Positions 4,338 through 32,554 of a stretch of DNA of 64,000 nt are shown here, one piece after another (positions within the stretch are counted from its first letter, which is position 1; each line of letters opens with the position of its first letter). The stretch comes from Terriglobales bacterium (lineage in GTDB: Bacteria; Acidobacteriota; Terriglobia; Terriglobales; Acidobacteriaceae). Below the pieces are notes generated by a model, which ran no database searches, was not told the DNA's origin, and was given only the letters and a program-made list of their open reading frames with translations. Location: assembly GCA_036271275.1 (NCBI GenBank), contig DATBAX010000355.1, positions 5,840-69,839 on the forward strand, read 5' to 3'. The position numbers and the translations under genes were made by a program.

Positions 4338-5693
4338 CTAAACTTTGTGGAGTGCTGGGACTTTGTAGGTACCGTCAATCAGCTCAAGTCTGGGTTGGTA
4401 CATTCTCAAGACCAGATGAAACGGCCCGCTGGAAATGGGAAGCCAATTGGACGTTCCTTTTTCTGGGGTTTCTTTTTGTAGTTGTAGTTCGAGGGAGCCA
4501 TCGTCATGTTTCAATCCCGCCGTTACGGTTCCAATGGCATAGCGATCGATTGGATTTGGGATTAGCAGGAACTGCGGTCCTTCATACGCTGACAACGACC
4601 AGAAGGCATTCACGGGAGGAAGAGCACCCGCAGCAAATTTGAGCGTGTATTTATTCGCCCCGGTCAGAGGTTCGTCCGGCTTGCCAATGAAATACAGCGC
4701 TTCCTGTGCAACGTGTGTTCCTGGCCCGTAAAGGTTTGCAGATGCCTTTAGAAGCGGATCTTTAATGAAGTTGGTGACCTTGTAATTTACTGACCAGCCA
4801 TTCGTGTTGTCCGTAACATCTGCTTTAATGATCTGAGTATTCGCCGCAGGTACTGCTTTAATGAGGGCAGCACGCAGTGCTGGGTCAACCACCTGCGATG
4901 GATGGGCTCCAGCTTTGATCCCAACTTTCTCAAATCGACGGAGTGAGGCCGCATCTTGCGGAAGAATGGGCAACGTTGCCAGGGCTGCGCTCATTTGGTC
5001 GAAGAATTGAAGTCCCAGAGTACTGAAGTCCGGGATCGGGATTGTTTGGAGGAAGTACAGCTCTTCCGAATGAATGCGCGGATAGGCGCTGAGCGGCGAC
5101 AGAGCGTACTGTTTCTGAATCGCCTGCGCCGCCGGAAGGTCGTCGTCCCCTTTCACGAGCGTGCGAGTCAAGACCAGGATGCGGCTGGTCAGAGATTCGA
5201 TTTTCGTCAGGCCCGCTGGAACTTTCCCTTCCCACGTCGGCCCCACAATCAGATATTTGCCTTCTTTCGTGCCGGTAGCCCGCCGTCCCACATAAGAAAA
5301 ATCATTCGAGTACTCATCGATCAACTGGACGGAGTAGTACCGATCGTTCGTTTCTGGAACATGCAGGACGAGTGGTTCGTTCGCAACGTCCAGGAAGGCA
5401 AATCCATAAAGCAGATTCATGCATGGCCCGACCGCTTTGTCGGCGGGCAAGGACAGATTCGGATTTCCGGTGAACCGGTTGAGAGGGATATTGTTCTGGC
5501 GGGCCCACTCAAAATACCAGCGTATGCAAACCGCAGGCAGTCCCCAGATATAAGCTTCTTGTGCGATTGCGAGAGGGTCGTCGAAATCTGTAGCAAAGGC
5601 ATGGGGTATCAATGAAAAAGCCCCGATGGAGGCAGTGCCGATTCCGGCCAGCCAAAGAAATTTTCGCCGCGTCACTTCGGATAGATTGGACAT
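4338..5693 (-). CDS. DUF1254/DUF1214 domain protein, Tat-exported (paralog 2)
   Basis: 451-aa ORF starting MSNLSEVTRRKFLWLAGIGTASIGAFSLIPHAFA. Collinear with the downstream paralog over its whole length, roughly half identical by eye. Confidence 0.85.
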   Translation of the reverse strand: MSNLSEVTRRKFLWLAGIGTASIGAFSLIPHAFATDFDDPLAIAQEAYIWGLPAVCIRWYFEWARQNNIPLNRFTGNPNLSLPADKAVGPCMNLLYGFAFLDVANEPLVLHVPETNDRYYSVQLIDEYSNDFSYVGRRATGTKEGKYLIVGPTWEGKVPAGLTKIESLTSRILVLTRTLVKGDDDLPAAQAIQKQYALSPLSAYPRIHSEELYFLQTIPIPDFSTLGLQFFDQMSAALATLPILPQDAASLRRFEKVGIKAGAHPSQVVDPALRAALIKAVPAANTQIIKADVTDNTNGWSVNYKVTNFIKDPLLKASANLYGPGTHVAQEALYFIGKPDEPLTGANKYTLKFAAGALPPVNAFWSLSAYEGPQFLLIPNPIDRYAIGTVTAGLKHDDGSLELQLQKETPEKGTSNWLPISSGPFHLVLRMYQPRLELIDGTYKVPALHKV

Positions 5694-5730: not shown

Positions 5731-7728
5731 TTATCGTTTTGCGACGACCGATCCGCTTCCGGCCGGTGTAAACCAAATTGGAGAGCTCCAGGCGCGCTCT
5801 TGAACCGTTGCCGGAACGAATTCTGAAAGTTTTACTTTCAGATGGTTCGCATCGTACGTGCTCCATCGACAGGTCGGATTCTCAAATACACGCACGTAGT
5901 AGAAAGCTCGCTCTGTTGGTTTGAAATCAGGATCAGTCCACAATGCACTGAGCTCCGTTGCCCCTTTGCTTTTTGAATAGGTGCAGTCGGTCAAGTTGAC
6001 TTTGGCGTTATTGTCCGCGCACTGGTGAGTTTTCTTGTCTGGCTTCAATCCATCGGAGCAGACAACGTCGTAAACCGCTTCGTGTGTCTCCCCGGCATCA
6101 GTCCATCCCTTAATAATCTGAATTTTCTGAAGACCGGCGCTGTTGGGGTCTTTGGTAGCCCAGGCAACAAACTTCGGAGCTTTTAAGGGGCCGGAAGCTG
6201 AAGGAAGATCTCCGCCCATGGGCACTCCATTTCGGTATGCCTGTTGCACAAGGTCGCGGCTACGGGAGAGATCATGGCGATAGTTCCATCCCCCAAAGAA
6301 GCGGACCCGGATGCGGGTTCCACTGGTGGCAAAAGTCTCGCGGCGCTTTAGAGCGTCAAAGATAGACTCCCGCGTGTTTTCTTCTGCCCAGACGCCCGCC
6401 AGGCCGCCGGGATTATTCATTACGGTTCGCACCGGCATTTCCTTGCCCATATTACTGTTCAGGCGTTTTTCCGGCTCGTTATCCACCAAACCACTCATGC
6501 CATTCCAGTTATCTTCTTCAGTTGCCCCGGGAGTGCTTGAGTGGGAGTCGGTGCCGCCTACAAATCCATACTTGAAAGGATTAGTTCCAAATTTTTCCTC
6601 GAGACCTAATCCTCTCTTTAGCGCGTCGCGCACGTAGTTGCTGGCGACCGCGCAAAAGGCGGTTTCGCCCTCTTTGCATGGCCTAAAATCCTGTTCGAAG
6701 TTGCATTCTTCATCGTTGGTGCCAAGGCCGGTTGCGCATTCTGAAGTTCCCTTACTTTGGTAAATTTCGATTAGCTTTTCCAACTTTGCTCGCCGCGCCA
6801 AGCCTTCTGCCGTAAAGGGTGTGCCATCGCTATTGTTGGACGCCAGTACGACTCCCCATCCCCAGTTGGTGTTATGAGGGATCGACAATACCTGGCAATC
6901 GCCGGTGCAAGCTTTTTCCAGCCAGGTCCAGAGGCGTTCCGGCGAGTTGTTTAAGTCCGCCGAACTATAGACGGATTGTGGAACGCTGCCTCCGCGGAAA
7001 ATTACGTTGCGATGTAACATGCCCAGCCGTTTAAAGCCAGCCGTCCATTCATAACCGGCAAACGTCGTGAACTTTCCAGGCTCGTAGAATTCATCGGCGT
7101 TTTTCTGGATTTGCTGCCAGACATTTTGCGCGCGCTGAAAGCAGCGATTATTTTCGTCGGCCAGAGCGCTGCCGCAAATTTCAGGATTGCGTTCCGCAGG
7201 ATCTTTGAATAGATGAGAAACCAACCCCCACATGGAACCGAGCGCCGTTTTCAAGTCTTGATCGGATTGGCGCAAATCGCGGCAAATATCACTCTTGTAA
7301 ACCGGGTCATTGGGATCCAGGCAGAAAGACAGTTCTCCCAACCACATGTCGTGGTCCGTAACGGCGACAAAATCGAGTGGAGCTTTTAACTGATTAATCT
7401 TTCCGCCGGGCAATGTAATGGGTTCTCCACGGCCAAATCGATAAGCCGCCCTTGGATCGTTGCGTGTGCCTATCGCATATGCATCCAACGAGTAGCTGGT
7501 GTGAACGTGGATATCCCCGAAGTACGCATTGCGTAGGGGATTTGGAGCGGGGCGCGATGCGGCTAACGAATCCTTGGAAGCTGGGTCAGCCCCCCAGGAC
7601 AGGCAAGTTGGGAATATTGCCATGAACAGAAACAGACGAATAAAAGGTTTCAGATCGATCGCTGTTTCGAATTTACCTTTACCGTGGTTTGCCATGAGGA
7701 ATCCTTGTTGTCTTCTTTCACTTTTCAC
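5731..7728 (-). CDS. DUF3604 domain protein (secreted PHP-like metallo-hydrolase fold)
   Basis: 665-aa ORF with a signal peptide (FIRLFLFMAIFPTCLSWG). Has the GDIHVHTSYSLDAY and DFVAVTDHD metal-binding-type motifs near the N-terminus. The start may instead be the internal MANHGKG at 7695. Confidence 0.8.
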   Translation of the reverse strand: MKSERRQQGFLMANHGKGKFETAIDLKPFIRLFLFMAIFPTCLSWGADPASKDSLAASRPAPNPLRNAYFGDIHVHTSYSLDAYAIGTRNDPRAAYRFGRGEPITLPGGKINQLKAPLDFVAVTDHDMWLGELSFCLDPNDPVYKSDICRDLRQSDQDLKTALGSMWGLVSHLFKDPAERNPEICGSALADENNRCFQRAQNVWQQIQKNADEFYEPGKFTTFAGYEWTAGFKRLGMLHRNVIFRGGSVPQSVYSSADLNNSPERLWTWLEKACTGDCQVLSIPHNTNWGWGVVLASNNSDGTPFTAEGLARRAKLEKLIEIYQSKGTSECATGLGTNDEECNFEQDFRPCKEGETAFCAVASNYVRDALKRGLGLEEKFGTNPFKYGFVGGTDSHSSTPGATEEDNWNGMSGLVDNEPEKRLNSNMGKEMPVRTVMNNPGGLAGVWAEENTRESIFDALKRRETFATSGTRIRVRFFGGWNYRHDLSRSRDLVQQAYRNGVPMGGDLPSASGPLKAPKFVAWATKDPNSAGLQKIQIIKGWTDAGETHEAVYDVVCSDGLKPDKKTHQCADNNAKVNLTDCTYSKSKGATELSALWTDPDFKPTERAFYYVRVFENPTCRWSTYDANHLKVKLSEFVPATVQERAWSSPIWFTPAGSGSVVAKR

Positions 7729-24244: not shown

Positions 24245-24252
24245 GAAATTTA
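24245..24252. repeat. target-site duplication GAAATTTA (left copy)
   Basis: Identical 8-mer directly abutting both outer ends of the inverted repeats. An 8-bp duplication is the size reported for the IS1595 family. Confidence 0.8.
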
Positions 24253-24280
24253 GGTAATTATCCCTTGACAGTAGGTACGG
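24253..24280. repeat. left terminal inverted repeat GGTAATTATCCCTTGACAGTAGGTACGG
   Basis: 28/28 match to the reverse complement of 26941-26968. Confidence 0.9.
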
Positions 24281-24306
24281 AATTGTCTAGTTTCGTGGAT
24301 GTCAGA

Positions 24307-25314
24307 ATGGCTGGCGAGCCGAGGGTATACTTCTGTCCGCAGCCTGACATTCATATGCGAGTTCCCGATACCGTCCGCAAGTGTGTCCTAACAATCGGAT
24401 GCGAGGATGAAGGCGAAATCCACTATGGAGCGACGGCGTTCCTCGTGGGTGTTCCGGGAAAAATAAGGGAGTGGAATGCCACCTATGTGGTCACTGCGAA
24501 ACACGCTATCACGCAGATAGGTGACCGACGTACCGTCCTGCGTGTCAACACGAAGGATGGGCGATCTGTGAGCATGGATACCACAGGAATGCGGTGGTTT
24601 TATCATCCTGATCCTCTTGTAGATTTGGCGATAACTCCCTATTTGCCAAGGTTTCATTCCGTGATGGACATTAGAACGATTTCCTTGGATATGTTCCTCA
24701 CTCAGGCCAACATTTCCGATCATCACATCGGGGCAGGTGATGAAGTTTTTATGACTGGCCTTTTCACGAAATTCAAAGGCGAATCAAAAAACCTTCCCAT
24801 TGTGCGAATGGGAACTGTTGCGCTTATTTCCAACGAAAGAGTCCCCTTCGGGGACGATCCAGATGCCTTAATCGACGCATATCTAATTGAGGGGCGTTCG
24901 ATAGGTGGACTCAGTGGATCGCCCGCATTTGTAAATGAGACGGTACAGGTCGCCTACGATAATCCGAAAGTGAAATCCCAGCTTTTCTACTTTGCGCCTG
25001 GGCAAACATTTTTCATGGGACTTGTTATCGGCCACTGGGCCGTTCCGCCCAGCCGTTCTTTACTTGAGCAGGAAAAGGTTAATATGGGTATATCTGTGGT
25101 CGTTCCTGCATGGAAGATCAAAGAACTTTTGTTTTTGCCGGAGCATGTAGAGATGAGAAACGAAGCGGAGAAACTAGCTTTCACGAAGAGTGGAGTCCCC
25201 GTGCGGGATACTGCCTTTCCTAAAAATGAATCAAAGGAAGTCTTTACCAGTGAAGACTTCGAGGAAACGCTAAAAAAGGTTAGTCGGAAGATTGAGCAGC
25301 CGAACAAACGGTAA
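24307..25314 (+). CDS. trypsin-fold serine peptidase (S1-like), IS cargo
   Basis: Start moved to the first ATG inside the element (MAGEPRVYF..). The candidate triad is VVTAKHAI (His), VDLAITP (Asp) and GGLSGSPAF (Ser). 335 aa with no signal peptide. Confidence 0.8.
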   Translation: MAGEPRVYFCPQPDIHMRVPDTVRKCVLTIGCEDEGEIHYGATAFLVGVPGKIREWNATYVVTAKHAITQIGDRRTVLRVNTKDGRSVSMDTTGMRWFYHPDPLVDLAITPYLPRFHSVMDIRTISLDMFLTQANISDHHIGAGDEVFMTGLFTKFKGESKNLPIVRMGTVALISNERVPFGDDPDALIDAYLIEGRSIGGLSGSPAFVNETVQVAYDNPKVKSQLFYFAPGQTFFMGLVIGHWAVPPSRSLLEQEKVNMGISVVVPAWKIKELLFLPEHVEMRNEAEKLAFTKSGVPVRDTAFPKNESKEVFTSEDFEETLKKVSRKIEQPNKR

Positions 25315-25318
25315 ACTT

Positions 25319-25882
25319 TTAACCCAGTGCGTTCAGCACCTTAGTTCCGGCGGGAGGTGAAAACTCGCCGATCTCTTCGGCCATCCCGTAAGCAACCGCA
25401 TCTTTGCCAGTGAGGTAAACGTCATGAAAACGAAACTGAGTCCACAATTCTTCGGGCAGCCTGAGATGGTTGCGCAAAATTTCTTCCATTCGGATGTCAT
25501 CAATAGTGAGGTTGTCGGCAGCAGCTTTCAATTTATCAGCGCCCGACGCATTGGGGTTATAGGTACTCTTGTGGATCATGAAGACAGCATTGGCTGTGGT
25601 CTTGCGGGAATGAGCACCGAGGTAAGCAAGAGTGGCAGCAGAAGCAACTTGGCCAGCATTGTAGAGAATGATTTCAATAGATAGTTTCTTTAGAGCGTTA
25701 TATAGAAAGACTCCATCTCCAACGAAACCGCCCCAAGAGTGGAATAGGACATGAACCCGCCTAGTTCCGTTGCTGGCCACTACAGTGAGACCGTTAATAA
25801 GTTTAGCTACGTTTGCGGCGTTAATATCGCCGCAATAGGTTGCCCAGATTTCTTCTACAGGTTTCTTGGTCTCTTCAGACAT
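25319..25882 (-). CDS. ClpP-fold (S14-like) serine peptidase, IS cargo
   Basis: 187 aa. FHSWGGFVGDGVFLYNAL aligns with the ClpP INSPGGSVTAG block. GQVASAAT has the Ser position and MIHKS the His position. GAGAGG lies upstream of the ATG. Confidence 0.75.
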   Translation of the reverse strand: MSEETKKPVEEIWATYCGDINAANVAKLINGLTVVASNGTRRVHVLFHSWGGFVGDGVFLYNALKKLSIEIILYNAGQVASAATLAYLGAHSRKTTANAVFMIHKSTYNPNASGADKLKAAADNLTIDDIRMEEILRNHLRLPEELWTQFRFHDVYLTGKDAVAYGMAEEIGEFSPPAGTKVLNALG

Positions 25883-25964
25883 GCGGAATTTACCTCTCTT
25901 ACCCTAACGGTAGTCCCTGTCGGACTCTCTTAGTTTGCTTTCGGCCAAAGCGGCCAAAACCTAG

Positions 25965-26909
25965 TCAGAACGGTACCACTTCCGGTCTAGTTTGCCGCAC
26001 AACTACATCACGCTTCTCAACCTGTTTCAAGATGCTGAGAAACATCGGCTGAGTATCGAAGCGGCGATTGTAGCGAAATGAATATTCATCAAGGTAAGAC
26101 TGCAAATAGCTTTTGCCGACTGAATGATAAACGCCCCGAATTCCATTTTTTACTAGACCCCAAAATCCTTCGATAGAATTCGTATGAACATCACCCGCAA
26201 CATAAACCTTCTCGCTGTGATTGATTCGATGATGCGTATATCGACGATCACGGATGTGAGAAACGCCGTCATATGCTTTCAGTTCATCGGTAAAGACCGT
26301 GCTCTTGGGCAGAACGTGCTCACGAACGATAGGAAGCAACGTGGCCCCTGTCCGCGCATTCACTTCGGTAAAGGCTCGTACTTGTCCGCCACGTTCCGCC
26401 ATGCCTACAACCATCGTGAGATGCTTTTTGTTCCCGCTCCCAACGCGACGGGTACCGCCGATCCAAGTCTCATCGACTTCAACGCCACGGCTGCCCTTCC
26501 CGCCAATCGGCTTGCCCAGTCCATCGCCAAGCATGGAACGAATCTGCTTGAACATGCGCCACGCGGTTTTGTAGGTCACGCCAGTTTCCCGCTGAATCTG
26601 TTTTGCGGAGATGCCGCATCGGGTAGAGGCCATGAGATAGATCGCGTAGAACCAAGTGGTAAGCGGAGTCGAAGATTTGTGGAAAATCGTATTCGCGGTC
26701 GGGTGAACATGGTGGCCGCAATGGTCGCAAGAGTAAGACGGACGGCTAGCGACGCGGTGATGCTTGGTTGTCGCCTCGCACTTATTGCAGTAAATGCCGT
26801 CTGGGTACAGGTAGTTTCGCAGCCACTCAAGGCAGATCGCGTCATCGGGATATTTGGCCTGAAAATCCTTGAGGGTGAAGGGTTTCATCGCTGGTTTGCG
26901 GCTGCTCAT
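25965..26909 (-). CDS. IS1595 family transposase
   Basis: 314 aa. N-terminal zinc-ribbon CNKCEATTKHHRVASRPSYSCDHCGHH, an HTH (GISAKQIQRETGVTYKTAWRMFKQIR), and a DDE-type core (VEVDETWIGG .. VFTDELKAY .. TNSIEGFW). Confidence 0.9.
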   Translation of the reverse strand: MSSRKPAMKPFTLKDFQAKYPDDAICLEWLRNYLYPDGIYCNKCEATTKHHRVASRPSYSCDHCGHHVHPTANTIFHKSSTPLTTWFYAIYLMASTRCGISAKQIQRETGVTYKTAWRMFKQIRSMLGDGLGKPIGGKGSRGVEVDETWIGGTRRVGSGNKKHLTMVVGMAERGGQVRAFTEVNARTGATLLPIVREHVLPKSTVFTDELKAYDGVSHIRDRRYTHHRINHSEKVYVAGDVHTNSIEGFWGLVKNGIRGVYHSVGKSYLQSYLDEYSFRYNRRFDTQPMFLSILKQVEKRDVVVRQTRPEVVPF

Positions 26910-26940
26910 GTCGTTTGACCTGAGAAAAGCATACCGGAAA

Positions 26941-26968
26941 CCGTACCTACTGTCAAGGGATAATTACC
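26941..26968. repeat. right terminal inverted repeat
   Basis: Reverse complement is identical to 24253-24280. Confidence 0.9.
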
Positions 26969-26976
26969 GAAATTTA
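26969..26976. repeat. target-site duplication GAAATTTA (right copy)
   Basis: Identical to 24245-24252. Confidence 0.8.
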
Positions 26977-27011
26977 TCATATTCGCCTTTCGTTCGCCAA
27001 TCCCATGTTCG

Positions 27012-27551
27012 CTAGAATATGCTGCTCTGCGCTTGCAATGGCGGCGGTTCGGGGCTGTACACAGCGATGCACTCAGCATCATCGTTCTGCACTGAATTAA
27101 CCCGCGGACTGACACGCCAGCTTCGCATCAATTCCGGACGGTAGGGCTTTAGCCGATCGAGAAGGGGTTCCGTTTTTCTGAAACCGGGGTCGAGCCAGAG
27201 ATCGTAATTTTCGGGCTCCAAGATGACAGGCATCCGGTAGTGTGCTCCGGCGACGAGGGCGTTCGCTGATGTCGTGATGATCGAGCAAGTCTCAAGCACC
27301 TCTTCCTTCGGGCTTTTCCAGCGGTCCCAAAGGCCGGCGAACGCAAAGAGCGAATCGTCGGCGAGCGTAAAGCAAAAAGGCGACTTGTTTTTCCACTCCT
27401 TTGCCCATTCGTAAAAACCGTCCGCGGGCACGAGGCACCGTCGCGACTGTAGCGGCTCGCGGAAGGCTGGCTTGTGAGCGACCGTTTCCGCGCGAGCGTT
27501 AATCATCTTGTATCCGGCCTTGGGATCTTTCGACCAGGACGGAATCAGCCC
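27012..27551 (-). pseudogene. 5'-truncated SOS-response-associated peptidase (SRAP/YedK-like)
   Basis: Homology runs from ..GLIPSWSKDPKAGYKMINARAETV.. to the stop. The first ~70 codons, including the catalytic Cys2, are missing. Upstream in-frame sequence has no SRAP similarity. Confidence 0.75.
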
Positions 27552-27553
27552 CC

Positions 27554-28096
27554 CACCTGCATCAGGAAGATTTCTGCCAAGCGCAAGGCATTGTGTCGGA
27601 ATTGAAGTACCAGAAGGAAGGCGGGCCGTCGCTCAAGCAATGTTTTGCGTTACTGCGCGAGGTATCGAGCGCGCCCGTCCTCGACCTTGCACGCCTTCTC
27701 GACGCCGTCATCTATAACTATCTTGTCGGCAACAATGACGCGCATGGCAAGAATTTTTCTCTGCTCTATACGAGACATGGAAATGGCAACCTGGAAATCA
27801 CATTGGCACCGCTGTACGACATCGTGAGCACGGTGTACTATCCCGACCTGAGCCGTGACATGGCGATGAGACTTGGCCGCGAATATTCATCGGGAAAAAT
27901 CCTGCCGCGCGATTTCGAGCAGCTGGCGGAAGAGGCCGGACTGGGCAAGGCCCAGGTCAAGCGGCGCATTCCCGAGCTTGCAGACACTGTCAGCGGCGAT
28001 CTCGGAAAAATAGAGATCGCGCACCCGAAAGCGGAAAAGGTGGCCGCGCTGATAAGGGAACGCTGCGCGAAGACGCTGGACAGTTTCAAGAATTGA
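27554..28096 (+). pseudogene. 5'-truncated HipA-like kinase (C-terminal domain only)
   Basis: In-frame HLHQEDFCQAQGIVSELKYQKEGGPS .. NYLVGNNDAHGKNFSLLY .. LAPLYDIVST are HipA C-terminal catalytic motifs. The N-terminal ~240 aa are absent. Confidence 0.75.
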
Positions 28097-28785: not shown

Positions 28786-31380
28786 ATGGATTCATTTCAT
28801 TCGGCGAGTTCGAGCTTGCGCCGCCGCCCGTTGGGATTTTCCCGGGCTACAACAGACATCCGCCAGTTTGTCCGCGTGCGGGGCGCTCGGGAACACAATC
28901 TCAAGGATATAAGTGTCGACATACCGCGGGATGCTCTTGTGGTTTTCACCGGTGTGTCAGGGTCGGGCAAGTCATCTTTAGCGTTTGGTACGCTATACGC
29001 CGAGGCACAACGCCGCTATCTCGATTCAGTCGCTCCATACGCGCGCCGTCTTTTCCACCAGATAGGTATACCTGATGTCGATGAGATCGATGGGCTTCCG
29101 CCCGCCGTCGCGCTGCAACAACAGCGCGGATCGCCGACCACGCGCTCATCCGTTGGTAGTGTTACTACATTATCCAACCTGCTTCGAATGCTCTACTCTC
29201 GTGCCGGGAATTATCCTGGCCATCAGCCGCTTCTGTACGCGGAGTCATTCTCGCCGAACACTCCAGAGGGTGCCTGCCCTCAGTGTCACGGCCTAGGACG
29301 GATCTATGAAGTGACGGAACGATCGATGGTCCCCGATGATTCACTAACAATCCGCCAACGAGCGATTGCAGCCTGGCCGACGGCATGGCAAGGCCAGAAT
29401 CAACGCGACATTCTGGTTTCGCTCGGCTATGACGTCGATCGTCCGTGGCGAGAACTGCCGAAGAAAACTCGGGACTGGATTCTATTCACTGATGAGCAGC
29501 CAGTTGTTCCTGTCTACGCCGGCCTTGATCCGCCCGAGGCGCGGCAAGCGCTCAAACGCGAAGAGGAACCGAGCTATCAAGGCACGTTTACCAGCGCGCG
29601 GCGCTATGTGCTTACTACGTTTGCTAATTCGGAGAGTGCACTGATGAAGCGGCGGGTATCACAGTACCTGGTGACCGGCGATTGCCCGCTTTGCGGTGGC
29701 AAACGTCTGCGTCGGGAGTCTTTGTCGGTGACATTTTCCGGCTTCGACATCACTGATATTTCGCGATTACCATTAAAACTGTTGGAAGAGAAATTGGGTC
29801 CTTACGCGGACGGAACGGCGGCAGATCTGGAAAAAATCACGTTACAGCATCCGGAGAAAAAGGTTGTTGCGCAGCGAATTGCTCAAGACCTACTTGCGCG
29901 GCTCGCAGTCCTCCTCGATCTGGGTTTGGGTTACTTGACGCTCGAACGAAGCACGCCCACCCTTTCCCCAGGGGAACTCCAGCGTTTGCGACTTGCCACC
30001 CAGGTACGGTCGAACTTGTTCGGAGTAGTTTATGTGCTCGACGAGCCATCCGCCGGACTTCATCCTGCGGACACTGAAGCTTTACTCTCGGCACTCGATC
30101 GTTTAAAGGCATCTGGCAACTCGTTATTTGTCGTTGAGCACGAACTGGATGTCATCCGTCATGCGGACTGGATCGTGGATGTGGGTCCAGCGGCTGGCGA
30201 TCAAGGTGGCCGCATCCTTTATAGTGGTCCGCCCGAGGGTCTCAAGAACATCGAAGAGTCTCGAACGCGGCGTTATCTTTTCGGCGAATTCAATCTACCG
30301 AGCCGCACACCTCACTCGGCTAAAGACTGGTTGCGGCTTACCGGCGTGACGCGAAACAACCTGAATAAACTCGATGCTCAATTCCCCGTCGGAGTGTTCA
30401 CAACCGTGACTGGCGTGTCCGGTTCGGGCAAATCGAGTTTGGTGAGTCAGGCATTGGTCGAATTGGCGGCTAAAGAACTGGGTCACGAAATTCCTATCGA
30501 TGACGACGAAGGCGAAGAGCTGGAAAGAACTGCGGTCGTCACTGTCGGCGGACAAATTAGAGGTGGCATGAAGGGCATCAAGCGGCTGGTGACGGTTGAT
30601 CAAAAACCAATCGGACGCACGCCACGCTCAAATCTCGCTACCTATACAGGTTTGTTCGATCCCATCCGCAAACTGTTCGCAGCCACCAAAGAGGCACGCG
30701 TCCATCACTATGATGCGGGGCGCTTCTCCTTCAATGTTTCCAAGGGACGTTGCGAAACCTGTGAAGGTGAGGGCTTCGTGATGGTCGAGTTGCTTTTCCT
30801 ACCTAGCGTCTACACCCCTTGTCCAACATGCCATGGCGCGCGCTACAACACGAAAACTCTGCAAATAAAATATCGTGACAGGAACATCGCAGAAGTCCTT
30901 AGGTTGACGGTTGATGCGGCTTTCGACTTTTTCTCCGCCGAGCCGCAGGTTCTGCGTTCGCTGGACGTGCTGCGCCAGGTTGGATTGGGCTACTTGCGCC
31001 TTGGCCAACCTGCAACTGAACTTTCCGGCGGCGAAGCCCAACGCATCAAATTAGCAACCGAATTGCAGCGATCTCAGCACGGCAACACGCTCTATATTCT
31101 CGATGAGCCCACAACCGGGCTGCATCCAGAAGACGTTGAGAAGCTAATCGCACAATTGGACCGCTTGGTGGAAGCAGGCAACACGGTCATTGTGATCGAA
31201 CACGACATGCGCGTTGTGGCTGCAAGCGATTGGGTAATTGATATCGGCCCGGGCGCGGGAGACGAAGGCGGCGGAATCGTTGCGTCCGGACTTCCCGCCG
31301 ATGTCTCAACAAAAAAGATCAGTCGCACGGCGTGCTACCTCAAGCGATTTCTGGACTCCTACTCAGCCGCAGTGGCGTAA
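28786..31380 (+). CDS. UvrA paralog, class II type (lacks the UvrB-binding domain)
   Basis: 864 aa with two ABC ATPase modules (GVSGSGKSSL twice, LSGGE twice). After ..LLRMLYSRAG the sequence goes almost directly to FSPNTPEGACPQCHGLG, so the ~130-aa UvrB-binding insertion of canonical UvrA is absent. Confidence 0.85.
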   Translation: MDSFHSASSSLRRRPLGFSRATTDIRQFVRVRGAREHNLKDISVDIPRDALVVFTGVSGSGKSSLAFGTLYAEAQRRYLDSVAPYARRLFHQIGIPDVDEIDGLPPAVALQQQRGSPTTRSSVGSVTTLSNLLRMLYSRAGNYPGHQPLLYAESFSPNTPEGACPQCHGLGRIYEVTERSMVPDDSLTIRQRAIAAWPTAWQGQNQRDILVSLGYDVDRPWRELPKKTRDWILFTDEQPVVPVYAGLDPPEARQALKREEEPSYQGTFTSARRYVLTTFANSESALMKRRVSQYLVTGDCPLCGGKRLRRESLSVTFSGFDITDISRLPLKLLEEKLGPYADGTAADLEKITLQHPEKKVVAQRIAQDLLARLAVLLDLGLGYLTLERSTPTLSPGELQRLRLATQVRSNLFGVVYVLDEPSAGLHPADTEALLSALDRLKASGNSLFVVEHELDVIRHADWIVDVGPAAGDQGGRILYSGPPEGLKNIEESRTRRYLFGEFNLPSRTPHSAKDWLRLTGVTRNNLNKLDAQFPVGVFTTVTGVSGSGKSSLVSQALVELAAKELGHEIPIDDDEGEELERTAVVTVGGQIRGGMKGIKRLVTVDQKPIGRTPRSNLATYTGLFDPIRKLFAATKEARVHHYDAGRFSFNVSKGRCETCEGEGFVMVELLFLPSVYTPCPTCHGARYNTKTLQIKYRDRNIAEVLRLTVDAAFDFFSAEPQVLRSLDVLRQVGLGYLRLGQPATELSGGEAQRIKLATELQRSQHGNTLYILDEPTTGLHPEDVEKLIAQLDRLVEAGNTVIVIEHDMRVVAASDWVIDIGPGAGDEGGGIVASGLPADVSTKKISRTACYLKRFLDSYSAAVA

Positions 31381-31438: not shown

Positions 31439-32554
31439 TTGAAGGCGAAATTTCCCGGTATGAACTTTTCTGAAGAGCCTTTGACAAATTCCCAGATCGC
31501 GGAACTACTGGCCGTTGCGGCCGAAGACGCACCTGCGCCACTGAATAAGGCCTATCGCCGTGCCTCCAGAAAAGCCTTGCTCTGGCCCGAGGAAGTTTCC
31601 ACGCTTCTACAGGAAGATCGGGCCCTAACCGAATTGCCGGGAGTCGGACCGTATCTCAATAAAATCATTTCGCGGTGGATGGAATGGTCCCCGGCCGTCG
31701 CCAAACCTCCCGATGTGAGGGCTAATTTTCTGACCAGGACGGAAGCGCGTTCGATCTTGCGAAAACATCCTTTGTGGGCTAGCGAGGTCAAAGGCGACCT
31801 TCAGATGCATACGCTTTGGAGTGACGGATTGGCTTCAATTCAGGAAATGGCGGAGACCGCAGAGACGCGTGGTTACGAATACATCGGAATCACCGATCAC
31901 TCTAAGGGATTGAAGATTGCCGGAGGCATCAACGAGGAGCAGTTGGAGCAACAAGGAAACGAAATCGCGGCCGTGAATGCAGCCTTCGAAGCAGCCGGTC
32001 GTTCCATTCGTGTTCTGCGCTCGATTGAAGTCAATCTGAGTCCAACCGGAGAAGTCGACATGAGCGCGCCTTCGCTCAACAAACTCGATCTTGTATTAGG
32101 CTGTTTCCATTCTTCGCTACGGAAGAAAGATGATCAGACCGAGCGTTATATCGCGGCCCTGCGGAATCCCGCGATACAGATACTAGGACATCCGCGCGGA
32201 AGGATTTATAACTTCCGTCTGGGACTAAGCGCCGACTGGTCGAGAGTCTTTGCAGTTGCCGCCGAATTGGACAAAGCGGTCGAGATCGATTGCTATCCAG
32301 ATCGGCAGGACATGAGCTTGGATCTCATCAAACTGGCGCGCAAAGCCGCGTGCAGGATCTCTCTTGGAACCGACTCGCACGGAGCCTCGCAGCTTGAATT
32401 CATAGAATTCGGCCTGGCTGCGGCGTTGAAAGGAAAAATAGATCCCGAAAGGATCTTGAATTTCATGGGTCGCGAGGACTTGGTGAACTGGGCAAAAAAG
32501 AAACGTTCACTGCCGAGCACGAAAATTGACTTTTCAATCCAAAACGTCGCTTGA
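31439..32554 (+). CDS. PHP-domain phosphoesterase with N-terminal helix-hairpin-helix (PolX-like without polymerase core)
   Basis: ELPGVGPYLNKII is the HhH element. GDLQMHTLWSDG, GITDHS and GHPRGR are PHP metal motifs. The start is TTG at 31439 or ATG at 31460. Confidence 0.75.
   Translation: MKAKFPGMNFSEEPLTNSQIAELLAVAAEDAPAPLNKAYRRASRKALLWPEEVSTLLQEDRALTELPGVGPYLNKIISRWMEWSPAVAKPPDVRANFLTRTEARSILRKHPLWASEVKGDLQMHTLWSDGLASIQEMAETAETRGYEYIGITDHSKGLKIAGGINEEQLEQQGNEIAAVNAAFEAAGRSIRVLRSIEVNLSPTGEVDMSAPSLNKLDLVLGCFHSSLRKKDDQTERYIAALRNPAIQILGHPRGRIYNFRLGLSADWSRVFAVAAELDKAVEIDCYPDRQDMSLDLIKLARKAACRISLGTDSHGASQLEFIEFGLAAALKGKIDPERILNFMGREDLVNWAKKKRSLPSTKIDFSIQNVA

Follow-up and report, generated by a model that had tools for sequence, protein, structure and literature searches.

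Why would a small insertion sequence (IS) carry genes for two unrelated serine proteases, and do these proteases belong together? The question is raised by an element found in a 64,000-nucleotide stretch of contig DATBAX010000355.1 (hereafter the window), which derives from a metagenome-assembled genome of the Terriglobales (Acidobacteriota). In addition to an IS1595-family transposase, the element encodes a trypsin-fold and a ClpP-fold protease, which a sequence-only reading of the window had taken for a two-protease module and a candidate conflict system. We find that the two proteases are separately mobile cargo modules that met in one element and did not co-evolve as a pair. The hallmark passenger of an abundant, undescribed IS1595 lineage, which occurs mostly in Acidobacteriota of soil and in neighbouring phyla, is the trypsin-like gene, and statistical analysis shows that insertion of this lineage is targeted to fixed landmarks in host DNA. 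The reading that we favour combines an intact copy of this lineage, independent protease modules, shuffled cargo, targeting to one side of LexA-type boxes and a cargo function that aids retention of the element. We put its probability as a whole at approximately 0.7.

The element spans 2,716 bp (24253–26968 of the window). It is bounded by 28-bp terminal inverted repeats, GGTAATTATCCCTTGACAGTAGGTACGG, which match without mismatches on the plus strand at 24253–24280 and on the minus strand at 26941–26968. These are the only two matches in the 64 kb, where shuffles of the window give an expected number of chance matches of 0. An identical 8-bp target-site duplication, GAAATTTA, lies directly outside the repeats on the left (24245–24252) and on the right (26969–26976). 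Both the perfect repeats and the duplication had been reported from the first inspection, and both were confirmed when the sequence was read again. The transposase gene (25965–26909, minus strand) encodes a protein of 314 residues with a zinc ribbon, a helix-turn-helix (HTH) region and a DDE region. The protein matches DDE_Tnp_IS1595 (PF12762, 1.1e-35), Zn_ribbon_IS1595 (PF12760, 4.6e-06; 26.9 bits with a cutoff of 25.4) and the NCBIfam model transpos_IS1595 (NF033547; 193 bits with a cutoff of 75), as expected for the full-length IS1595-type transposase first described. Its homologues at E<=1e-60 exceed 7,000, and the most similar of them are 81–85% identical. The element is thus placed in the IS1595 family both by its transposase domains and by its terminal inverted repeats with an 8-bp target duplication. 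Duplications in the IS1016 subgroup of this family are 8 bp, with a range of 7–9 bp (PMC12561309).

Two further open reading frames (ORFs) lie between the transposase gene and the left repeat. The gene for the trypsin-fold (PA clan) protease, with 335 residues, is located at 24307–25314 on the plus strand, and the gene for the ClpP-fold protease, with 187 residues, is located at 25319–25882 on the minus strand. The three ORFs are as originally given, including the 4 nt between the stop codons of the two protease genes. Both protease genes are inside the element ends, in keeping with the proposal that the unit moved as one piece with both of them as passengers. The window unit is probably an intact copy that transposed recently. 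An assembly artefact is an unlikely source of the repeats and duplications, as 26 distinct examples of such elements are known.

The comparison covered 88 fetched loci with a trypsin-like gene (83 distinct) and 21 distinct loci with a ClpP-like gene. The 18-bp core of the terminal repeat, GGTAATTATCCCTTGACA, also ends 27 other complete copies of the element. Complete copies therefore number 28 in total (26 distinct), and 25 of them have perfect 8-bp duplications. A set of 24 copies comprises the window element, the identical pair L001/L002 and others; within this set 21 copies have perfect duplications, all of them different except in the identical pair. The copies beyond the 24 are those at L123/L124, L129, L130/L131 and L027. 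The repeat core is present approximately 50–110 bp upstream of the trypsin-like gene in 30 of 65 evaluable loci. Where enough downstream sequence is available, a transposase of the window type (type A, 59–76% identical) converges on the trypsin-like gene in 14 of 33 loci.

Members of the lineage share a simple layout in which a terminal repeat is followed by the inward-reading protease gene, a slot of 23 bp to 1.5 kb, the inward-reading transposase gene and the second repeat. The slot is empty in minimal elements. Elsewhere it contains unrelated small ORFs, most of them co-oriented with the transposase gene. In the window this variable slot is filled by the ClpP-like gene, which is downstream of the transposase gene and co-oriented with it. 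Among 25 complete elements that carry the trypsin-like gene, the identity of the transposase to the window copy shows no correlation with that of the trypsin-like protein (r = 0.01). The nearest transposases (82% identical) are paired with trypsin-like proteins that are 38–39% identical to the window protein. Because the identities are uncorrelated, we conclude that the left half of the element, with the protease gene, and the right half, with the transposase gene, recombine between elements.

Intact elements that lack the trypsin-like gene were also identified. The element at L027 (3469–6646) has intact duplications, ATTCCCCT, and encodes a DUF433/HTH protein, a PIN_10 protein and a ClpP-like protein. 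The element at L130 (3942–6822; the same element as L131) also has intact duplications and contains a SocA/Panacea-domain gene. Approximately 1.1 kb of uncalled sequence is present in this element besides that gene. A BLASTN search of plasmid records with the whole window element returned nothing, and protein searches of plasmids and phages gave distant or no matches and no named IS. The nearest annotated transposase in the plasmid records shares only 40% identity and bears no IS name, just the label 'IS1595 family transposase'.

Reconstruction of the empty sites revealed a recurring direct repeat beside the insertions. A perfect TTCGC-N6-TTCGC box is found in 12 of 76 unique element-end flanks, and 10 of these 12 boxes are located exactly 5–6 nt past the duplication, all of them oriented alike when read outward from the element. 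With a background of 1.4e-5 per position, the binomial P is approximately 2e-34. The ten box-adjacent insertions are the one in the window and those at L035, L040, L043, L123, L130, L129, L072, L073 and L091. The gene that follows the box is lexA in four independent insertions (L035, L040, L043 and L123) and recA at L130. In addition, a transposase gene lies approximately 150 bp upstream of recA on the P0242 contig, an example that concerns gene placement only. The sole perfect box in the 64 kb of the window (TTCGCCTTTCGTTCGC, 26982–26997, plus strand) is in host DNA outside the element, 5 nt beyond the right duplication, and is presumed to be the landmark for this insertion.

Either end of the element may face the box. 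The L130/L131 element has no trypsin-like gene, yet it is located at the recA box. Targeting is therefore a property of the transposase or of the element ends and not of the cargo. The elements themselves were also searched for LexA-type boxes, since an internal box would suggest that the IS genes are under SOS control, and no perfect one was found. From the neighbouring genes and the form of the repeat, we infer that TTCGC-N6-TTCGC is the LexA operator in these organisms. The SOS box of Alphaproteobacteria is GTTC-N7-GTTC (PMC9578287), and a 2006 paper by Mazon et al., listed among the references of PMC3789691, assigns in its title an alphaproteobacterial origin to the lexA gene of Acidobacterium capsulatum. 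At least two target classes exist besides the LexA-type boxes. One of these is a repeated intergenic sequence, perhaps a REP- or MITE-like element or an operator, in which GCTAAGTCCTTA is followed by a near-palindromic duplication of the form TTCNGGAA and then by TATTTTGCA. It is represented at L033, L039, L057, L065, L069 and L104 (and also at L067 and L078), and the consensus of its empty sites is GCTAAGTCCTTA, TTCNGGAA and TATTTTGCAnnTAAGTC in succession.

The trypsin-fold protein has no Pfam match at threshold and no NCBIfam match. It matches the PADLOC model PDC-S45 with an E-value of 7.9e-21, although the match is partial (positions 16–218 of 293 in the model), and it matches phrog_7688, a phage family of unknown function, at 6e-16. 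The His, Asp and Ser blocks that were first noticed in the window are real and conserved, with His66, Asp106 and Ser205 invariant across an alignment of 27 homologues. A C-terminal tail, FTxEDFExALKKASRKI, is also conserved among the homologues. The AlphaFold model (pLDDT, the predicted local confidence, of 78.5) consists of a double beta-barrel and C-terminal helices, and Foldseek matches it with a probability of 1.0 to thrombin, viral 3C and HtrA/DegS proteases. The double beta-barrel, with His, Asp and Ser in this order, is characteristic of the PA clan. A sequence-profile search of the PDB with the family gave spurious katanin matches to the C-terminal helix only, and a search of a viral structure library with the model gave only generic 3C-like protease matches.

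The trypsin-like family is large. At E<=1e-3 it comprises 10,097 cluster representatives, a number that falls to 3,151 at E<=1e-30, and the best 150 are all stand-alone proteins of approximately 240–400 residues. Clustering of neighbouring genes identified no conserved partner for the trypsin-like genes that are not associated with the IS. Translation in the window may alternatively start at 24355, which corresponds to a family-conserved MRVPD. The public annotation (P0001, P0121) describes the trypsin-like gene as encoding a hypothetical protein of 246 residues, with a start that is probably too late. From their sequences and models, both proteases of the window element look catalytically competent and cytoplasmic.

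Insertion is targeted, and a major class of its sites is found 5–6 bp from one flank of a LexA-type operator, immediately in front of the promoters of SOS genes such as lexA and recA. This position is a safe landing place that every host offers. A promoter-like site, TTGACA-17 nt-TATGCT (26928–26956, minus strand), faces the transposase gene and matches 10 of 12 consensus positions; its TTGACA hexamer is within the right repeat, and its second hexamer is just internal to the repeat. This site may drive expression of the transposase gene, and the ClpP-like gene, 82 bp downstream of that gene, is probably co-transcribed with it. A TTGACA hexamer inside the left repeat also faces inward, and the trypsin-like gene could use it as its -35 hexamer. 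The most likely role of the cargo is in conflict, addiction or defence, which would help to keep the element in its host, rather than in a step of the chemistry of transposition. Such a role is suggested because the trypsin-fold family is related to PDC-S45 and because sister elements carry PIN/DUF433 or Panacea genes. The broader idea in the sequence-only reading, that of a candidate conflict-type cargo, is plausible in this respect.

The trypsin-fold protease might instead be an accessory of the life cycle of the element, processing the transposase or a host regulator such as LexA and thereby linking transposition to the SOS response. The gene, with its invariant triad, is kept across elements with transposases that are 59–82% identical. 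It is positioned directly inside one end, where the repeat supplies the TTGACA hexamer, and the lineage lands beside the operators of LexA, a protein controlled by proteolysis. However, the intact elements at L027 and L130/L131 have fresh duplications without this gene, and the latter is still at its recA box. The trypsin-like gene is thus needed for neither transposition nor targeting. Thousands of members of the family are also found outside this IS, and we consider an accessory role unlikely.

About as doubtful is an explanation in which the IS uses LexA operators as landmarks, through either the box itself or bound LexA, and the conserved trypsin-fold passenger is an effector linked to this choice. 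It would act by cleavage of LexA or another repressor, which would tie transposition to the DNA-damage response, or as an abortive-infection protease whose benefit keeps the element in the host. Its two components are of very different standing. The targeting is statistically solid, and nothing more than speculation connects the protease with the SOS response.

A cargo function in retention of the element, as we favour, leaves the question of whether the two proteases perform it together. They had been proposed to be one functional conflict module carried by the IS, acting as a protease and anti-protease, as a two-step effector or as an addiction pair. Their presence within one element, the preservation of both catalytic triads and the close spacing of their stop codons all invite this view. 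However, a ClpP-like gene was found in 0 of the 83 distinct trypsin-like loci, and a trypsin-like gene was found in 0 of the 21 ClpP-like loci. In the genomes outside the window, the two genes thus occur independently and are never adjacent in the loci sampled. The closest transposase relatives (82%; L123–L128 and L129) belong to minimal elements of 2,039–2,142 bp that have their own duplications and trypsin-like cargo only. In these sisters the trypsin-like gene converges on the transposase gene with 4 nt between the stops, and the ClpP-like ORF of the window sits where the transposase stop falls in the minimal elements. The 4-nt gap is therefore a feature of the backbone and not of a pair, because it is already present in sisters without the ClpP-like gene. 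At L027, moreover, the ClpP-like gene travels with other cargo (PIN/DUF433). The co-occurrence counts and the sister elements do not support a two-protease module, which we regard as very improbable. The second protease was gained by chance in the window element. A candidate second paired locus (P0002 and P0218, both on 2,392-bp contigs) was rejected as a coincidence, as L032 has no trypsin-like gene.

The ClpP-fold protein matches PF00574 at 5e-16, and its best NCBIfam and PHROG matches are ClpP-related head-maturation proteases (1.6e-17 and 1.5e-16). However, its scores are far under the curated cutoffs, with 64 bits for the head-maturation model NF045542 (cutoff 120) and 30.1 bits for the ClpP model TIGR00493 (cutoff 308.6); scores for the PRK ClpP models are likewise far below their cutoffs. 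In an alignment with E. coli ClpP, Ser81, His104 and Asp154 coincide with the catalytic triad, and the N-terminal axial region of ClpP (approximately 30 residues) is absent. Ser81 and His104 are invariant in the family and Asp154 is nearly so, which bears out the earlier observation that the Ser and His positions are retained. The family also has a private C-terminal motif, EFSPPxGxKVLNALG. The structural model (pLDDT 86) gives TM-scores of 0.70–0.82 to solved ClpPs at approximately 20% identity in Foldseek.

None of the ClpP-like loci has a neighbouring Clp ATPase gene, and no head-morphogenesis module (portal, capsid or scaffold genes) was found near the ClpP-like gene in the 21 loci. The ClpP-like matches in viral collections adjoin an integrase or a replication module. 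Membership in a prophage head-maturation module, which had been raised as a possible objection, is contradicted by the absence of head genes beside the homologues and by the low score for the head-maturation model. Its sequence and setting indicate that the protein is neither a housekeeping ClpP nor a prophage head-maturation protease. The public annotation (P0001, P0121) as 'ATP-dependent Clp protease proteolytic subunit' finds no support in the curated thresholds and is corrected by this result. The least probable explanation that we considered, that the ClpP-like gene is a functionless accidental capture, either a prophage head-maturation remnant or a diverged housekeeping ClpP, draws on the best profile matches and on the public annotation and is opposed by the low scores, the lack of head genes, the conservation of the family with its triad and private motif intact, and the recurrence of the gene beside transposases.

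The ClpP-like homologues are 47–89% identical and come almost entirely from the Acidobacteriaceae and Terriglobales. The genes are directly downstream of, or convergent with, transposase genes of at least four types. These include type A, as in the window, a second IS1595 type (type B) that is 32% identical to type A, an IS1-family type (PF03400) and more distant IS1595 types. Such a transposase gene is within 1.6 kb in 13 of the 21 ClpP-like loci and within 250 bp in 10. Distances of 33–250 bp are observed at L005, L010, L017, L018, L020 and L031 (IS1-like), at L007 and L030 (second IS1595 type) and at L016 and L019 (convergent IS1595). DNA homology between the ClpP-like loci ends at the borders of the ORFs. 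A promoter-like box, TGTAATAT, is located 7–8 nt before the ClpP-like ATG and may be a leaderless or short-leader promoter. An inverted repeat, GTnTATCGrCATT-N8-AATGCAAyAG, is located approximately 40 nt past the stop. Both are found at L005, L007, L010 and L016–L021, and they are present whichever type of transposase adjoins the gene, which is the behaviour of a cassette. This pattern suggests that one ClpP-like cassette has been captured by, or exchanged among, IS1 and IS1595 backbones repeatedly.

The ClpP-like gene is shown to lie within a delimited IS in the window and at L027 only. Terminal repeats and duplications were sought by k-mer and local alignment for the convergent IS1595 units with a ClpP-like gene, and none was convincing. 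A 48–71-bp segment shared by L005, L010 and L031 was considered as an element end and was rejected, because it appears to encode the C-terminus of an unrelated small protein. At L030, a tRNA-like 3' end, CGGGTTCGAATCCCG (4724–4746), is located just upstream of a frameshifted type-B transposase gene and its ClpP-like partner, and this unit may be at the border of a tRNA-linked island. At L121, from a viral collection, a ClpP-like gene that is 74% identical (5001–5567) is beside a tyrosine integrase gene (5872–7323) and not a transposase gene. This gene is at the edge of an integrated element.

Several points weigh against the account as a whole. Approximately half of the trypsin-like homologues are outside this IS and have no conserved partner, and the family is therefore not IS-specific. 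PDC-S45 is itself a computational candidate only. The box is identified as a LexA operator because it precedes lexA or recA and fits GTTC-N7-GTTC, and the box in the window has no obvious SOS gene downstream, in a region that is decayed. In addition, a search by k-mer and local alignment found no convincing ends for units in which a ClpP-like gene accompanies an IS1-like or type-B transposase gene, and the mobility of these units is deduced because the genes are co-inherited in different contexts.

The surroundings of the window element are ordinary chromosome. Genes for a manganese catalase, a pyrophosphatase and Nramp are found on one side. On the other side are an N-terminally truncated SRAP gene (27012–27506, minus strand), a C-terminal fragment of HipA (27593–28096, plus strand), and genes for a UvrA-like ABC ATPase (28786–31380, plus strand) and a PHP-domain protein (31439–32554, plus strand). 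The SRAP gene lacks the N-terminal 75 or so profile positions, which presumably include the catalytic cysteine. The element is inserted between this remnant and a 99-residue ORF, not within a gene, and the decayed stretch is beside genes of the DNA-repair type. The first description of the region, as a decaying island with remnants of toxin and abortive infection genes, stands in part. The HipA fragment and the truncated SRAP gene are real, and the supposed abortive infection remnant corresponds to a weak AAA_21 match on the UvrA-like ABC ATPase.

PDC-S45, the known family nearest to the trypsin-like protein, has been reported from Sinorhizobium prophages, where it is a hypothetical candidate (PMC12429752). 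Like PDC-S45, a single-gene candidate for phage defence, the trypsin-like protein is encoded by a stand-alone gene, and this gene has no conserved partner. The match to the PDC-S45 model covers only part of the model, and the trypsin-like family has a private C-terminal helical tail. The comparison indicates a family related to PDC-S45, with membership less clear. The ClpP-fold protein, for its part, shares with ClpP (peptidase family S14) and with the head-maturation proteases the ClpP fold and Ser, His and Asp at the canonical positions. It differs from them in lacking the axial-loop region, in having its own C-terminus and in scoring below their cutoffs, and its gene adjoins transposase genes rather than those for ATPases or capsid proteins.

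The IS1595 family was reportedly defined by Siguier, Gagnevin and Chandler in 2009, with subgroups that carry passenger genes. The window element resembles these in its zinc ribbon and DDE_Tnp_IS1595 domains, its inverted repeats, its 8-bp duplications and its extra ORFs. It differs in that the lineage has a conserved serine-protease passenger and inserts adjacent to operators; the literature searched contained no report of protease passengers in IS1595 or of IS insertion directed by SOS boxes. An entire lineage keeps a catalytically intact protease and exchanges cargo of the conflict type at a defined slot. Passenger-bearing elements of this kind blur the boundary between insertion sequences and transposons. 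If the cargo does act in defence or addiction, few of the vehicles that disseminate such functions among soil bacteria would be smaller than these minimal elements of 2–3.5 kb.

There is precedent for mobile elements that insert at defined sites, as Tn7 inserts at attTn7 and IS1397 and ISKpn1 insert in repetitive extragenic palindromic (REP) sequences. Like these elements, the lineage described here keeps a fixed distance from a host landmark and uses intergenic, 'safe' positions, with insertion in both orientations. However, its landmark is the direct repeat of a LexA-type operator, with further target classes besides, and it has a single DDE transposase without a dedicated target-selector protein. 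Targeting to LexA operators is relevant to the question of how mobile elements locate safe sites and perhaps detect DNA damage, and a simple IS that inserts at a fixed distance from these operators, in front of lexA and recA, would represent a new form of target selection.

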